A stretch of DNA of 50,709 bases, taken from a phage. The translations under genes were made by a program, and so were the position numbers. The stretch lies in the sequence record NC_105617.1; one strand, 5' to 3'. Shown here in pieces: positions 27,751-42,126 of the stretch. The notes under the pieces are model-generated. The model was not told the DNA's origin and ran no database searches. It was given only the letters and a program-made list of their open reading frames with translations. Each line of letters opens with the position of its first letter. The first letter of the stretch is position 1.

Positions 27751-29769
27751 GTGACAATTAACATCAAAAAGCAAATCGCATTACTTGGCGATGACTATAT
27801 AAAACGCACTCAAGAACGATTCACTGTTGGTGAGGTCGTTCCGTATCCGTACCAGGTTGTTGCTTATGCTGAGATCGCAAAACGCCTATCAAATTACGAG
27901 CATCCATTCTTTGTTAAGGCGTCAGTGTCTGCTGGTAAGACAATCATTTTCGCTATGGTTGCAAAGCAGTGTCAAAAAATGGGCTTAAAAATGCTTGTGC
28001 TGGCTCGCCAGGGTGAGATTGTCGATCAGGATAGCGAAGAGATCGATAACTTCGGGGTAACTAACTCCATATTCTCAGCGTCACTTGGAATCAAGTCCTG
28101 CTACTTCCCGATCGTGGTTGGCTCTGAGGGCACTGTTGCAAATGGTTTAAATAATGAGTTGGCTGATTTTGTCCCTCACGTAATCGGGATAGATGAATGT
28201 CACCAGGTGGATTGGGAAGACCTTGCGCAAGCCATAGACGGAAAGGAAACGATGGAACAGATGCGGGGAGAAAAAGGGAAAATTATCATGGACGGTGATA
28301 TTCCTCTGATTGGTAATGATGGAAAGCCTCTTCTTGGAACTAAGCGCAGTCAGTACACGATCGTAATCATGGAAATGATGCGACGCTGTAAAGAGGTTCA
28401 CGGTCACGACCTTAGAATATTTGGTATGACTGGTTCTGAATTTAGGGGCGTAGTTCCTATTCTTGTTGAGAATCCAAAGGCGTTAGGCTTCTGGCGTGAG
28501 CGCGTTACTGATATAGACACCAACTACCTTATTGAGTTTGGCTCAGTCGTTCCGACTATATTCGGTTCTACGGACGGAGTTCACTACGATCTTGATAAAT
28601 TTAAGGCATCAAGCGAGGATGGGGTACAGGACTTTGCAGAGAAAGATATGAAGGCAATGGAAGATGAGATCCTTCATGATAAATCTCTTACTCAGCGAAT
28701 CATGCAAATGGTTGCCAAAAAGGCTGAAGAGCGTAACGCAGTTCTGATCACATGCGCCGGGGTGCGTCACTGCAAAGAGGCAGCGGCGGCACTACCACCA
28801 GGAAGCACATATGCAATTATTACTGGCGACACAGACACTAAAACGCGCAAGAAGATTCTTGATGATGTTAGGGCCGGGAAAATTAAATACACCTTTCAGG
28901 TCATGGCGCTAACTACTGGCGTTAACGTTCCAAATTGGGATTTCAGTGTAATACTTCGCAAGATAGGATCTCTTACCTTGCTGATTCAGCTTTTGGGTAG
29001 AGGTATGCGACTTCTTAAATCCTGGCAGGTTGCTGAAGGGATGGTTAAGCAAGACCATCTTGTATGGGATTTCGCAGGCACGATGGATGAGTTGGGGCAG
29101 CTTTATTTCGATCCTATACTTGAGCAGGCTCAGTTCCAGAAGCGATTTGAGAACGGAAAAGACCCTAAAACGTGCCCGAAATGTGGTTGCGTAAATAGCT
29201 TCTATGCTCGCCGATGCGTTAACGTTATCGACGGTGAGCGCTGTGATCATTTCTGGACTTCTCAGATTTGCGAGGACCAGGTTGATGAGCGCACTGGGAA
29301 AATTCTTGTCAAAGGGTGCGGTGCCGAGAATGACGTTGTGGCCCGAGTCTGTCGCTGTTGCGATGTTTCTCTTGTTGATCCTAACCTTAAGTTATCCGGT
29401 AAGGCTTACACCAAGAATGACTGGTACGAGGTCAAGAATTTTGAAGTTACGTTAACCAAAAACCAAAAGGGTGTGATATACAAATACACGCTTATTAATG
29501 ATGAGGGTGATGAGTTCAAGGCGTATGAAAAATTCTTCCCTGAGTCAGACTCTAAGATTTGCGGTACGCTATGGAAAACTAAAGGAGTATTACCTCACGT
29601 ATCAGATCCTAAAATGCGTCGATACTTTATCGGAATGAAGAACGCTATCAAGATCGTGCAATACTCTCATCATATAGCGCATCCGGTACGCGTTACTCAT
29701 AGGCGCAACCAGAAGAAGGAAGATATTATTTCACGCAAAGATTTCGGTATGGAGGATATCCCGGAATGA
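27751..29769 (+). CDS. SF2 DEAH-box helicase
   Basis: GTG start; motif I SAGKT, motif II GIDECHQ, motif VI QLLGRGMR; C-terminal Cys-rich zinc-ribbon-like region. Confidence 0.8.
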   Translation: MTINIKKQIALLGDDYIKRTQERFTVGEVVPYPYQVVAYAEIAKRLSNYEHPFFVKASVSAGKTIIFAMVAKQCQKMGLKMLVLARQGEIVDQDSEEIDNFGVTNSIFSASLGIKSCYFPIVVGSEGTVANGLNNELADFVPHVIGIDECHQVDWEDLAQAIDGKETMEQMRGEKGKIIMDGDIPLIGNDGKPLLGTKRSQYTIVIMEMMRRCKEVHGHDLRIFGMTGSEFRGVVPILVENPKALGFWRERVTDIDTNYLIEFGSVVPTIFGSTDGVHYDLDKFKASSEDGVQDFAEKDMKAMEDEILHDKSLTQRIMQMVAKKAEERNAVLITCAGVRHCKEAAAALPPGSTYAIITGDTDTKTRKKILDDVRAGKIKYTFQVMALTTGVNVPNWDFSVILRKIGSLTLLIQLLGRGMRLLKSWQVAEGMVKQDHLVWDFAGTMDELGQLYFDPILEQAQFQKRFENGKDPKTCPKCGCVNSFYARRCVNVIDGERCDHFWTSQICEDQVDERTGKILVKGCGAENDVVARVCRCCDVSLVDPNLKLSGKAYTKNDWYEVKNFEVTLTKNQKGVIYKYTLINDEGDEFKAYEKFFPESDSKICGTLWKTKGVLPHVSDPKMRRYFIGMKNAIKIVQYSHHIAHPVRVTHRRNQKKEDIISRKDFGMEDIPE

Positions 29770-30182
29770 TTACAGATAAAGGCGATTACTTAGAGTTTTA
29801 CGAGCGAGATCCTAGCGACACGAGAAAGGAGGACGCTCATCAAGTAGACTGCGTGTCTTGGTTGAAATACAATTTTCCTCAGCTTCTATTTTGGCACACA
29901 GTTAACGAAGGTGAAAAAACAATCACATCGGCGCTCAGGGACGAGCAAGCCGGATTGCTTAAAGGTGTTTCGGACTTCGTTATCCTGATTGGTGTAAACT
30001 CACGTTACCCGTTCGCAGCTATCGAACTCAAACGGGTTAATAAGTCCGGCAAGGGAAAGGCGTCACCAGTCAGCGATAAGCAAAGGGAGTTTCTCAAAAA
30101 GGTTCGGGATCGCGGTGGATTCTCTGCCGTTGCATACGGATTTGAGCAATTCAAGCTGGCAATATACGATTTAACTAAATAG
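29766..30182 (+). CDS. VRR-NUC domain nuclease
   Basis: 138 aa with D...ELK signature (SDFVILIG...AIELK) typical of VRR-NUC PD-(D/E)xK nucleases; overlaps helicase stop. Confidence 0.55.
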   Translation: MITDKGDYLEFYERDPSDTRKEDAHQVDCVSWLKYNFPQLLFWHTVNEGEKTITSALRDEQAGLLKGVSDFVILIGVNSRYPFAAIELKRVNKSGKGKASPVSDKQREFLKKVRDRGGFSAVAYGFEQFKLAIYDLTK

Positions 30183-30249: not shown

Positions 30250-30963
30250 ATGAAAGACTTTAAAGATATCGAAACAATCGACTTTGCAGAAACCGGGTGC
30301 TCATTCACTCGCGAAGCAATAGCATCAGGCGGTTATTATCAAGCATTGAAAACGCCAACCTGCAAAGAGATTTCAGGACGTCGATACAAGGGAACAAATA
30401 CACCTGACGCAGTTCGTGATTTATGGTCAACCCCACGCGAGGTTATCGCATACCTTGAGGGTCGCTACGGAAAATATGATCTCGACGCTGCGGCAAGCGA
30501 AGAAAATAAAGTTTGCGAGAAGTTTTATTCCCAGGAAACAAACTGCTTAAAACGTTGGTGGGGTAAAAATAAGCACGTATGGTTAAACCCTCCTTACAGT
30601 CGACCTGATATATTCGTCAAGAAAGCGATTGAGCAAATGGAGCACAACAACCAGATCGATATTCTTTTACCTGCCGATAACTCGACTGCGTGGTTTACTG
30701 AGGCTCGACAGCACGCGGCTGAAATCATCTGGATTGAAGCTGATTTGACTGAGGATATTGACGGCAATGAATACGCACGATCCGGTCGCTTGGCTTTCAT
30801 ATCCGGTGAAACTGGAAAGGCGGTTGACGGCAATAACAAAGGTTCGGTAATTTTCATTATGCGCGAACTTAAAGAGGGTGAGACACAGCAAACTCACTAT
30901 ATCCCAATCACAAGCATTTGCCCTTCGGTGAAAAACAAGCGCGCAAAAGTGAGGAAAGTATGA
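30250..30963 (+). CDS. dam: DNA N6-adenine methyltransferase (phage Dam family)
   Basis: 237 aa; catalytic NPPY motif (WLNPPYS); architecture of phage orphan Dam enzymes. Confidence 0.8.
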   Translation: MKDFKDIETIDFAETGCSFTREAIASGGYYQALKTPTCKEISGRRYKGTNTPDAVRDLWSTPREVIAYLEGRYGKYDLDAAASEENKVCEKFYSQETNCLKRWWGKNKHVWLNPPYSRPDIFVKKAIEQMEHNNQIDILLPADNSTAWFTEARQHAAEIIWIEADLTEDIDGNEYARSGRLAFISGETGKAVDGNNKGSVIFIMRELKEGETQQTHYIPITSICPSVKNKRAKVRKV

Positions 30964-39193: not shown

Positions 39194-39224
39194 GGTGATT
39201 GCCTCGTTTTCTGTAGATGGGATA

Positions 39225-39267
39225 ACTATACCAGCCATCCATGCCGTGCGTTTAGCAAAAAGTGCTA
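39225..39267 (-). promoter_or_regulatory. Box-hairpin-(-10) cassette (minus)
   Basis: Minus strand tagcactttttgctaaacg + 22 nt + TATAGT. Confidence 0.5.
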
Positions 39268-39270
39268 TCC

Positions 39271-39375
39271 TCAGCGACCAACTGCATCCATAATGATTGA
39301 GAACATGATCGCGAGCAAGCACCCGGAAAGAGCGAAAATCATTGAGGCTATTGCGTAATCAAAAAACTTTGTCAT
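39271..39375 (-). CDS. Small hydrophobic peptide (micro-ORF)
   Basis: 34-aa ORF MTKFFDYAIASMIFALSGCLLAIMFSIIMDAVGR with RBS GGGGG; stop followed by a TAGCAC box. Confidence 0.3.
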   Translation of the reverse strand: MTKFFDYAIASMIFALSGCLLAIMFSIIMDAVGR

Positions 39376-39377
39376 AA

Positions 39378-39608
39378 TTACCCCCTGAAACTATCAATAG
39401 TGTCATTAATGTATTTCACCTGAGCCTCGACGTCTGACGTGGCGATATACTGAAATGTATCGTAATCCTCCCGCAAGTCGACAAGCTCAATCTTTGTATG
39501 ATGCTCTTTCAAGCCACCCATGTGACCGTAATGCGTTCTGTAGACAATGAATCCCTCATCATTGGCGCGCTGAATTGCCTTCTTCAGCCCGGGGTGTTTA
39601 ATTGCCAT
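39378..39608 (-). CDS. Hypothetical protein
   Basis: 76 aa behind cassette with CCAATCAGGAG leader. Confidence 0.5.
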   Translation of the reverse strand: MAIKHPGLKKAIQRANDEGFIVYRTHYGHMGGLKEHHTKIELVDLREDYDTFQYIATSDVEAQVKYINDTIDSFRG

Positions 39609-39639
39609 CTGTTGATTCTCCTGATTGGTTGATGTGTTA

Positions 39640-39682
39640 ACTATACCCCGATCTCACTCGGGGCGTTTAGCAATTCGTGCTA
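39640..39682 (-). promoter_or_regulatory. Box-hairpin-(-10) cassette (minus)
   Basis: Minus strand TAA stop + tagcacgaattgctaaac + 22 nt + TATAGT; hairpin ccccga/tcgggg. Confidence 0.55.
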
Positions 39683-40018
39683 TTAATCGATATCAAACTC
39701 AGCGGCGTATGCTTTCTTGAAGCCAGCTTCGCGCATAGTGCGCTTGCTGATTTTGCGCGGGAATTTGTACTGGCTGTTAGGCTTGACCCACCAGAAGCAG
39801 GAAGTCTCGCGAACGATTTCATATTTACCGTAACGAGTGAAGGTATCGCGTTCCATATCAGGCTGATTAACACAGGTCAGGAATTTAGCTGCTTTGTCTT
39901 CAGTTTTGATTTCTTCCCAAACGAATGAGTCCATTCCGTTAACCTTGCAAGCAACCATGATGTACTCAACGCCGTTTTCGATTTTGATGATTTCGTTACC
40001 GCGATTTTCGTATTTCAT
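39683..40018 (-). CDS. Hypothetical protein
   Basis: Start at ATG 40018 with RBS AGGAG downstream of cassette 40057-40099. Confidence 0.45.
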   Translation of the reverse strand: MKYENRGNEIIKIENGVEYIMVACKVNGMDSFVWEEIKTEDKAAKFLTCVNQPDMERDTFTRYGKYEIVRETSCFWWVKPNSQYKFPRKISKRTMREAGFKKAYAAEFDID

Positions 40019-40056
40019 TTTCTTGCTCCTGATGTGTATCTCGTTTCGATGAGGTA

Positions 40057-40099
40057 ATAATGCCAGATTCCATTCCGGCAGTTTTAACAAAAAGTGCTA
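40057..40099 (-). promoter_or_regulatory. Box-hairpin-(-10) cassette (minus)
   Basis: Minus strand tagcactttttgttaaaac + 22 nt + CATTAT; box encodes C-terminus of MTase-like gene. Confidence 0.5.
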
Positions 40100-40788
40100 T
40101 TTGCGATCGCTTTAAAAAATCCCCTGGGCGACAGGGATCGTATCAACTTAGTTTTGGCAGATTTGCCGCCTAGCTTACTGTGCTGTGCAGAGTACCCGTC
40201 AGGCAGGCTTACAGGTTTTCTCTCGGGCATGACAAAATCGTCAGAGGTCCAAAGGCAAGTTTTCTTCGGGTAAGCATCGCGCGGCGCAATATACATCGGG
40301 AACCAGGGGTGTGAGTCATTCTCAGGAAGATAGCCGCCATACTCCCAGGGATTGAAGGAGTGATTTGGTTTTCTCCAGGCAGATGACAGGACGCTAACCG
40401 GATTCTCAATGATGTAAGTCACGCCCAGGCTATCGCCAATGTTCGCAGCAATCCGGGCGGTGGCAACAGCCTTCTCCTGGAATAACTGATCGCGTTCACG
40501 CTTTCTTGCGAAGTGAGCGGCACCACTAACAGCTAGGTCAGTGCACGGCGGGAAGGCCATAATGAAATCCGGCTTGCCATACACGCCAGCGATAGCATCA
40601 CGCTCAAACGCTGCGTCAATGAACACGTTCACATACTCAATGTTCGGATGCTCCACTCGGGCATTGTACTTTGCGTAATCTCCGTGATCGGCTCCGTCAA
40701 AGTTGAAGCACATTACCTTGTGACCTTGCTTAGCTAGCTCATGACCAGCAAGACCGGAACCGTCGAATAGGGACCAAATCAACTTCAT
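40084..40788 (-). CDS. DNA cytosine-C5 methyltransferase-like protein (compact, noncanonical)
   Basis: Motif I-like LFDGSGLAG, motif IV-like FPPCTDLAVSGA (PC dipeptide, T in place of Q), motif VI-like IIENPVS; only 234 aa; last five codons (NSTFC-stop) are encoded by a TAGCAC box. Confidence 0.5.
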   Translation of the reverse strand: MKLIWSLFDGSGLAGHELAKQGHKVMCFNFDGADHGDYAKYNARVEHPNIEYVNVFIDAAFERDAIAGVYGKPDFIMAFPPCTDLAVSGAAHFARKRERDQLFQEKAVATARIAANIGDSLGVTYIIENPVSVLSSAWRKPNHSFNPWEYGGYLPENDSHPWFPMYIAPRDAYPKKTCLWTSDDFVMPERKPVSLPDGYSAQHSKLGGKSAKTKLIRSLSPRGFFKAIANSTFC

Positions 40789-40928
40789 TTTGCGATCTCC
40801 TTTTTGTAGTGATTCAGCTTGTCGATGATTGACTTCGACTTGTTGGCTAGCGCCATGTCAGAGAACAGAGCTACGCGATAGATGTGTTCGTAACGATTAA
40901 TGGCTGCGTTGATGTTTGCAATATTCAT
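40785..40928 (-). CDS. Small hypothetical protein
   Basis: 47 aa from ATG 40928 behind CCAATCAGAGGA leader; first gene of the minus-strand block. Confidence 0.35.
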   Translation of the reverse strand: MNIANINAAINRYEHIYRVALFSDMALANKSKSIIDKLNHYKKEIAK

Positions 40929-41018
40929 GTCGATTCCTCTGATTGGTTGATGAGATGAATCATACCCGATCGGCAGTGCTGATGTGTTGCAAAAAATGCT
41001 ATTCCAATAGTTGCTCAT

Positions 41019-41610
41019 TATTCCACCATCAATGGAATATCTGGAATAATTGCGATCCCGATTGATCTCGAATGATGAAATGTGATTGTTGCATGGTGTG
41101 CAACTGTTGATGTGATTGTTTCTTAGAATGCAATGATTGTGAGAGGGGGGATTTAGTGTTACCCGGTTCGCCTGGTGGTCATCTCCATTTTTAGCAAAAC
41201 GTGCTATCGATTACAATTTAACTTGTCACGACTGTAATATTTGTCTAGAATCGCACTTGTGACAAAATTACGCACTGTGACGCATCACAATAGACATATA
41301 GATATATGTATATATATAATATATATAGTGTTTTTTTTATTTATATATATAGATAATTATATTGTAATAGTTGTGTATAGCCGTCTTACATTGTCTAGCG
41401 TACTGTTGGCATATTTCTATCTGCATGTTTATATATACAGTACTTTTTTGAGGGCTATATATTTCTATAGTGACTCTAGACAGCTAGACAAATATTACAC
41501 AGCTTAAAATTGGCTTGCAGTCGTTGACAGCTCTACGTCGCTCTGTCACAATGGCAATTGTTGACATGCTATGACACCATTTACACACCAATAGACAAAG
41601 AGGGCACATT
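41019..41610. repeat. AT-rich divergent control region with repeated TGTCAC/GTGACA and TTGTCTAG/CTAGACAA motifs (hub 2)
   Basis: Repeats tgtgattgtt x2, acttgtcac/acttgtgac, ttgtctag x2, ctagaca x2, atagaca x2; (TA)n tracts 41295-41360. Confidence 0.5.
41524..41552 (+). promoter_or_regulatory. Candidate sigma70 promoter for plus-strand early block
   Basis: TTGACA-17 bp-CACAAT about 58 nt upstream of ATG 41611. Confidence 0.4.
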
Positions 41611-42126
41611 ATGAGCAATACCAATCAGGAATTAAAAATCACCGACATGATTCGACTAACCTGCGATGCAATGTACCGCGACAAAGGCATGACCGAGTTC
41701 TCTTTCGTGGCTGATGATATGGCCCTAGAAGCAGCGCGATTCTACTTTCGTGGCCAGGAGGTAAGTGATAGCGATCTTGAATCTGCCGCTGCCGGATGGG
41801 TGGACCAGAACCAGGGGGAGGTAGAGAAGCGATTCAAATCTGCTTTCATCACTCCAATCATTACCCGACACTTTTGCAAGTATGGCAAGGTGGCAAAGGT
41901 GAAGGTAGGCCGGAATGACGCGGCAATCACGATGATAACCGTTATCGTTACCGACGAAGAGGTTCCGGTGAAGAAGCGCCGCAGCCGGAAAAAAGTTAGC
42001 CTGGCCGACTGCCTTGATTCGTTTGACGTTGATGTTAGCAAGCTATCCGATAGCGAGTTAATGGTTCGTGATGTGAATGAGATCGTGCGCCAGATGAAAG
42101 CACATATTGAAAAGTGTGGACTGTAA
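41611..42126 (+). CDS. Hypothetical protein
   Basis: 171 aa, first gene of the plus-strand early block, RBS AGAGGG; basic patch KKRRSRKK. Confidence 0.5.
   Translation: MSNTNQELKITDMIRLTCDAMYRDKGMTEFSFVADDMALEAARFYFRGQEVSDSDLESAAAGWVDQNQGEVEKRFKSAFITPIITRHFCKYGKVAKVKVGRNDAAITMITVIVTDEEVPVKKRRSRKKVSLADCLDSFDVDVSKLSDSELMVRDVNEIVRQMKAHIEKCGL

Follow-up and report, generated by a model that had tools for sequence, protein, structure and literature searches.

The 50,709 nucleotides of phage record NC_105617.1 (the window) carry a short minus-strand gene with C5-cytosine-methyltransferase motifs. Its product might be a working DNA methyltransferase or, as an earlier note had suggested, an altered or truncated enzyme. 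Our analysis indicates that the gene likely codes for a complete and probably active C5-methyltransferase (C5-MTase) that acts on DNA with SAM as methyl donor and belongs to the compact, phage-borne phrog_757 family. The reading frame, motifs, family, fold and context discussed below were established here, and 5mC formation and the retron trigger are taken from the literature on a homologue with 55% identity; what is said of the activity, recognition sequence and anti-restriction role of the window protein is inferred.

Reading frame, motifs and family of the compact methyltransferase

The coding sequence (40084-40788, minus strand) is the only ATG-started open reading frame (ORF) at this position and specifies 234 aa plus a stop codon, which lies within the end coordinate. 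A Shine-Dalgarno element, AGGAG (40797-40801, minus strand), was read from the sequence 8 nt 5' of the ATG. The earlier note had described a 234-aa ORF containing LFDGSGLAG, FPPCTDLAVSGA and IIENPVS; this description agreed with the ORF list and the translation, and the three motif strings were confirmed by hand on the DNA sequence.

Motif I, the SAM-binding loop LFDGSGLAG (40744-40770, minus strand; residues 7-15), lies immediately past β1 (residues 3-7), with F8-D-G10-S-G12 providing the FxGxG pattern. The Pro-Cys nucleophile of motif IV (P81-C82) follows β4 (residues 75-78) within the catalytic loop FPPCTDLAVSGA (40519-40554, minus strand; residues 79-90), and Cys82 is the nucleophile. Motif VI, IIENPVS (40393-40413, minus strand; residues 126-132), includes Glu128 and places E128-N129-P130 on β5 (residues 124-130), with Pro in the position of Val. 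The QxRxR pattern of motif VIII was not found, as the sequence preceding β7 reads P-K175-K176-T177-C and has no Q/R pattern. The segment RDAYPKKTCLWT (40246-40281, minus strand; residues 170-181), which runs into β7 (residues 177-181), is our candidate for the motif VIII equivalent, with K175, K176 and T177 in place of QxRxR, and K175 may be its functional substitute.

Fifty-three residues are left C-terminal to β7, consisting of a variable stretch followed by a highly conserved block. The variable segment (40171-40233, minus strand; residues 186-206) occupies the position of the target-recognition domain (TRD) and has ~20 residues, compared to the usual ~80-100. The conserved block, GGKSAKTKLIRSLSPRGFFKAIA (40102-40170, minus strand; residues 207-229), forms two helices and is a putative equivalent of motif IX and/or X. 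Only ~25 residues separate the end of β7 (residue 181) from this block (from ~206), and a sizeable TRD was not found between them.

The earlier note had proposed a profile and structure search, which returned a full-length family match and a confident class I methyltransferase model. Residues 1-231 matched positions 14-217 of the 247-position phrog_757 profile ('DNA methyltransferase') with an E-value of 1.7e-83, supporting the note's reading of the product as a methyltransferase. A search of 5.8 billion proteins found 4,862 homologous clusters, with lengths among those listed of mostly 225-260 aa, and an exhaustive search of 50%-identity representatives found 939 clusters, whose proteins are typically ~232 aa long. 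By tblastn the methyltransferase matched 1,520 phage records, mainly from phages of Escherichia, Klebsiella, Salmonella, Shigella, Campylobacter, Vibrio and Arthrobacter hosts. Matches of this strength and number go well beyond chance. The compact family has no Pfam or NCBIfam model and is, to our knowledge, among the smallest C5-MTase architectures. Its small size is ancestral. Thus the 234 aa given by the earlier note were correct, but the suggestion of truncation was not supported, as the family norm is ~225-260 aa.

We next considered conservation. When 108 diverse members were aligned, residues P80, C82, T83, G89, E128, N129, P130, K175, T177, W180, P188, R217, P221 and G223 were conserved at about 84-99% (92-98% for E128, N129 and P130). 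Thr follows Pro-Cys in 91/108 members, and the Pro of ENP replaces Val in 106/108. PCT and ENP are thus the forms that motifs IV and VI normally take in the family; the earlier note's 'PCT instead of PCQ' is accurate as a description, T83 being the residue usual in the family. In family alignments, conservation was at least 90% for D171, Y173, K175, T177 and W180, and likewise for R217, P221, G223 and A227 of the C-terminal block, the consensus of which is KLGGKSxxTKxIRSxTPRGFAxAV. All elements of the phrog_757 signature (FPPCT, ENP, K175, T177, W180, P188, R217, P221 and G223) are present in the window protein. Family-wide, motif I is reduced to [FY]-D-x-[TS]-G in the 108-member alignment. 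Across the family alignment, segment 186-206 shows the lowest conservation and the greatest variation in length, and some members have insertions of 30-40 residues there.

One position departs from the wider family. Position 29 in motif II (40702-40704, minus strand) is Asp in 95/108 wider-family members and Asn in all 60 close members from enterobacterial phages, including the window protein and the K42-type homologue. A D-x-A-D-H-G-x-Y stretch after Asn29 is conserved in the close members and absent from distant ones. Asn29 would count against the proposed enzyme, yet the active K42-type homologue carries the same Asn.

Compact methyltransferase domains were also observed fused inside helicase-like phage proteins (A0A6J5SE15, 1397 aa, and A0A6J5NPY6, 1126 aa; BFVD, TMq ~0.6), and in Dhillonvirus phages the stand-alone methyltransferase gene directly adjoins, or overlaps, one for a DNA helicase. 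These fusions and the Dhillonvirus adjacency may link the compact methyltransferase to a helicase.

Predicted fold and genome context

An AlphaFold2 model built with 60 homologues (pLDDT 88.9, pTM 0.88) predicted a compact single domain of seven strands alternating with helices and no disordered tail. In the model, motif I lies past β1, Pro-Cys past β4 and ENP at the end of β5; the catalytic loop (residues ~81-100) is predicted with lower confidence. In a Foldseek search of the model, the catalytic domains of DNMT3A/B ranked first and CmoX was the second-best structural match, and the class I methyltransferase fold was closest to solved C5-MTases. Within a viral structure library, entries for other compact 'DNA-cytosine methylases' of phages came closest (TM 0.8-0.86). 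As modeled, the overall architecture is closest to a small DNMT3-type catalytic domain.

The window belongs to a T1-like Tunavirus (Drexlerviridae). The region has 92-97% DNA identity to T1-like coliphages and Shigella phages, with CLB_P3 the closest at the DNA level. The methyltransferase is 99.6% identical to a 'hypothetical protein' of CLB_P3, 98% identical to bas13_0055 of LeonhardEuler ('Dcm-like C5 cytosine methyltransferase') and 94% identical to a 'DNA methyltransferase' of JMPW2. It is 55% identical, over its full length, to bas06_0055 of KarlJaspers (711-bp gene), in which C82, E128, K175 and K176 carry the same numbers. Segment 186-206 is 33% identical to its KarlJaspers counterpart, compared to 55% overall, and falls into a different class ('GYSxQH' here, 'NPGW' in K42/KarlJaspers).

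The T1 reference (NC_005833) gave no tblastn match to the methyltransferase, and blastn synteny against the same record delimited an accessory segment, 39233-41087, that T1 lacks. Since T1 has neither a homologue nor a counterpart of 39233-41087, the methyltransferase is an accessory gene of this T1-like phage. Besides the methyltransferase, the 1.85-kb segment includes three small ORFs (76 aa, 111 aa and 77 aa), and it adjoins a divergent intergenic region (41019-41610). The methyltransferase gene sits beside that region, close to where a minus-strand gene block has its upstream end. Sequences flanking 39233-41087 match both ends of the linear T1 record.

The ORF upstream of the methyltransferase (40785-41018, minus strand; 77 aa by its longest start) overlaps the methyltransferase start by ATGA, suggesting translational coupling of the two. 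It had no match in Pfam or PHROG; the annotation of CLB_P3 has it in a shorter form of 47 aa, and LeonhardEuler has no annotation there. The downstream gene (39683-40018, minus strand; 111 aa from an internal ATG) belongs to phrog_29431, the PHROG match beginning at residue 25 of a TTG-started ORF, and corresponds to the 336-bp bas13_0054 of LeonhardEuler. A terminator-like GC-rich hairpin with a T-run (40121-40137, minus strand) lies within the last ~20 methyltransferase codons, just 5' of this next gene; in a promoter and terminator scan of 39200-41700, counts were within chance expectation.

The earlier note had also placed a Dam enzyme at 30250-30963, and this assignment held. The plus-strand gene encodes a Dam-type N6-adenine DNA methyltransferase of 237 aa (PF05869 'Dam', E 4.8e-69; phrog_111, E 4.6e-85) and is syntenic with ST20, the T1 gene annotated 'DNA methyltransferase'. 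A gene for a VRR-NUC domain nuclease (29766-30182, plus strand; PF08774, E 6.4e-14) separates the Dam gene from the large helicase gene, whose stop it overlaps by 4 nt.

Activity, recognition and alternative readings

Evidence on activity comes from phage K42, a close relative of the BASEL phage KarlJaspers, which was studied together with retron Ec86 (10.1101/2023.08.16.553469; cited in its journal version as Wang et al., Cell Rep 2024). In all four Ec86 escapers a 711-bp 'dcm' gene was disrupted or potentially disrupted, and such a gene was present in 34/35 Ec86-sensitive phages (10.1101/2023.08.16.553469). Expression of K42 dcm was toxic only in cells with Ec86, LC-MS showed that K42 Dcm raised 5mC on msDNA, and activity on the msDNA of Ec86 (Retron-Eco1) led to abortive infection (10.1101/2023.08.16.553469). 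A C82A/E128A/K175A/K176A mutant of K42 Dcm was inert, K175 and K176 being termed substrate-binding, and altering CCTGG in the msDNA stem abolished defence (10.1101/2023.08.16.553469). Since the K42/KarlJaspers homologue is active, is 55% identical and has its catalytic residues at the same numbers, there is good indirect evidence, by analogy, for m5C methyltransferase activity of the window protein on DNA, and for its potential to trigger Retron-Eco1.

In the proposed mechanism, the FDGSG loop past β1 would bind SAM and the target cytosine would be flipped out. Cys82 in the PCT loop would then attack C6 as Glu128 of ENP protonates N3, and transfer of the methyl group to C5 would be followed by release of the enzyme through β-elimination. 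The catalytic core from β1 to β7 is complete, with segment 186-206 and the two-helix C-terminus taking the place of a large TRD. Together, the methyltransferase and Dam would place m5C and m6A on phage DNA as it replicates, and on host DNA, from which the phage would likely gain protection against methylation-sensitive restriction enzymes. The cost, documented in the homologue, would be that activity on msDNA triggers abortive infection by Ec86. An anti-restriction role is plausible; in the BASEL study, resistance of Drexlerviridae to restriction was not linked in any simple way to their methyltransferase genes, and a literature search for Drexlerviridae methylome data found nothing relevant. 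The phage probably has DNA with both m6A and m5C, which affects restriction mapping, cloning in mcr+ hosts and nanopore basecalling, and we predict that Retron-Eco1 (Ec86) would act against it, as in hosts such as E. coli B/BL21.

We likewise questioned whether the K42 specificity applies to the window protein. Because segment 186-206 differs in class and is only 33% identical, CCWGG cannot, judging from the sequences, simply be transferred. That K42 Dcm acts on CCWGG, at the inner C, was deduced solely from msDNA mutants tested in MG1655. MG1655 is dcm+ and should already methylate CCWGG, so that an assignment from msDNA mutants in this strain leaves room for another specificity of K42 Dcm. 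CCWGG is not avoided in the window (1-50709), with 94 sites observed compared to ~71 expected (O/E 1.3). Because T1, which lacks the gene, displays the same ratio, the frequency of CCWGG is uninformative on specificity.

Other sites were strongly depleted. RCCGGY was absent from 1-50709 (0 observed, ~37 expected, z ~ -6): ACCGGT, GCCGGC, ACCGGC and GCCGGT all had counts of 0, with 147 CCGG sites in the genome and RCCGGR contexts common. T1 has 1 RCCGGY site compared to 43 expected. This gap suggests strong past selection by a restriction enzyme of the Cfr10I/BsrFI type. The 6-bp palindromes AAGCTT (0 observed/17.6 expected), GGCGCC (0/11.1), GAATTC (0/10), GGATCC (0/8), CCATGG (0/6.5) and CTGCAG (0/5.4) were missing as well; GGCC, GGWCC and CTAG were depleted, GATC was mildly low (243/308) and CCNGG, like CCWGG, was over-represented (O/E 1.5).

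A recognition mode unlike that of classical bacterial C5-MTases is unlikely, though it merits consideration because of the ~20-residue TRD segment, the lack of detectable Dcm kinship and the distinct classes of variable segment. The enzyme might use a very short or relaxed site, read DNA as a DNMT3-like dimer or prefer stem-loop DNA; acceptance of host carboxy-SAM would be a less likely option. DNA reading in the absence of a normal TRD, and the specificities that go with it, are modest questions that concern the family as a whole.

That last option, taken on its own, holds that C5-MTase chemistry is used with a carboxymethyl group from host carboxy-SAM, giving 5-carboxymethylcytosine instead of or alongside 5mC, and we consider it very improbable. 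CmoX (PDB 8YF3) is a phage DNA cytosine C5-carboxymethyltransferase of ~370 aa with a full TRD; its type is defined by SPPC together with an Arg at the position of HhaI Asn304 (CmoX Arg350, motif X) and is usually encoded beside cmoA and an amide ligase (PMC12783734). Carboxymethyl transfer is also carried out by the engineered M.MpeI N374K. The rank of CmoX as second-best structural match, the production of carboxy-SAM by E. coli and the presence in the family of FPPC (SPPC in CmoX) with conserved basic residues in the C-terminal block are consistent with this idea, but PPC also occurs in M.HaeIII, and DNMT3A, which uses SAM, has an Arg in its GRS motif X (read from the sequence). Moreover, neither cmoA nor an amide-ligase gene is annotated in related genomes, and LC-MS on the K42 homologue revealed raised 5mC, 5cxmC apparently not having been sought.

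A slightly smaller probability attaches to the view that the physiological substrate is not the duplex phage genome but either RNA (e.g. tRNA, the Dnmt2 substrate) or only DNA of an unusual form, single-stranded or hairpin: DNMT3B, DNMT3A, CmoX and M.HhaI, all of them DNA enzymes, scored above Dnmt2, and the stem that contains the msDNA site is double-stranded. Least probable of all is the 'truncated, possibly inactive' enzyme of the earlier note, a decayed, catalytically dead remnant of a normal-sized C5-MTase that lost its TRD and C-terminal motifs, for although the 234 aa (327-472 aa in M.HhaI and E. coli Dcm), the sub-threshold PF00145 match restricted to profile positions 5-93 and the lack of a recognizable QxRxR or GN(S/A)V motif would fit such a remnant, thousands of clusters from many phage groups share this length and architecture, few parts of the family are as well conserved as the C-terminal block, AlphaFold2 gives one compact domain that lacks a disordered tail, the same-size K42 homologue is reported active, and close relatives displayed no frameshift excess or relaxed selection, the closest clusters being full length and 86-97% identical.

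Comparison with known C5-methyltransferases

An intact compact C5-MTase is thus our preferred reading, and it differs from canonical enzymes in several respects. M.HhaI, M.HaeIII and Dcm (PF00145) have PCQ, ENV and QxRxR, in contrast to PCT, ENP and KKT here; canonical C5-MTases have a TRD of 80-100 residues, compared to a variable segment of ~20. The PF00145 profile scored 11.4 bits against the methyltransferase (cut-off 22, E 0.22), and only 4/88 family members matched it at E <= 0.01. An NCBIfam search with the methyltransferase gave no match, and sequence searches of solved chains with the single protein and with 60- and 88-sequence profiles gave no significant match, the best being motifs I-IV of M.HaeIII (family profile, E 0.16). 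The family HMM scored ~2 bits against Dcm and HhaI in hmmsearch. The Pro-Cys of the methyltransferase aligns with PCQ of E. coli Dcm, PPCQ of M.HaeIII and PCN of DNMT3A.

Sequence kinship with E. coli Dcm, including its TRD, was not detected. As the profile-profile match (hhalign) covered just 23 columns around motif IV with a probability of 0.85%, the label 'Dcm-like' refers to the chemistry, not to relatedness with E. coli Dcm.

The C-terminal block resembles both RRLTPRECARL of Dcm (motif IX) and LLGRSWSVPVIRHL of DNMT3A (motif X), and could be the equivalent of either. In PSSM scans with shuffling controls, comparisons of the block with Dcm, HhaI and DNMT3A were all non-significant: the best-scoring window for IRSLSPRGFFKAI was Dcm motif IX (p = 0.12), and the likeness of KLGGKS...IRSL to the motif X region of DNMT3A gave p = 0.43. 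PSSM scans of Dcm, HhaI and DNMT3A for a motif VIII counterpart found none, and a Pfam scan of ten isolated C-terminal fragments gave no match. We also considered a split C5-MTase in which a partner subunit supplies the TRD or motif X, and rejected it: the flanking ORFs are small and have no MTase similarity, the flanks differ between phage groups, and K42 Dcm works when expressed alone.

Of the characterized enzymes, DNMT3 offers the closest comparison. With the DNMT3A catalytic domain (query sequence checked to be identical to PDB 5yx2_A), hhalign gave a probability of 81% over motifs I-IV only, with SLFDG and PCxDL in common. Identity to the DNMT3A/DNMT3B catalytic domain is 12-17%; DNMT3 has ~93 residues from the motif VIII Trp (FWGN) to the GRS of motif X, compared to ~25 here, and its regulatory domains and partner proteins have no counterpart for the phage methyltransferase. 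Nothing indicates direct ancestry with DNMT3. The gene is an ordinary member of a known, partly characterized phage family, already annotated in T1-like phages, and it shares with the Drexlerviridae KarlJaspers and LeonhardEuler a like neighbourhood of small early genes and a separate Dam-like gene.
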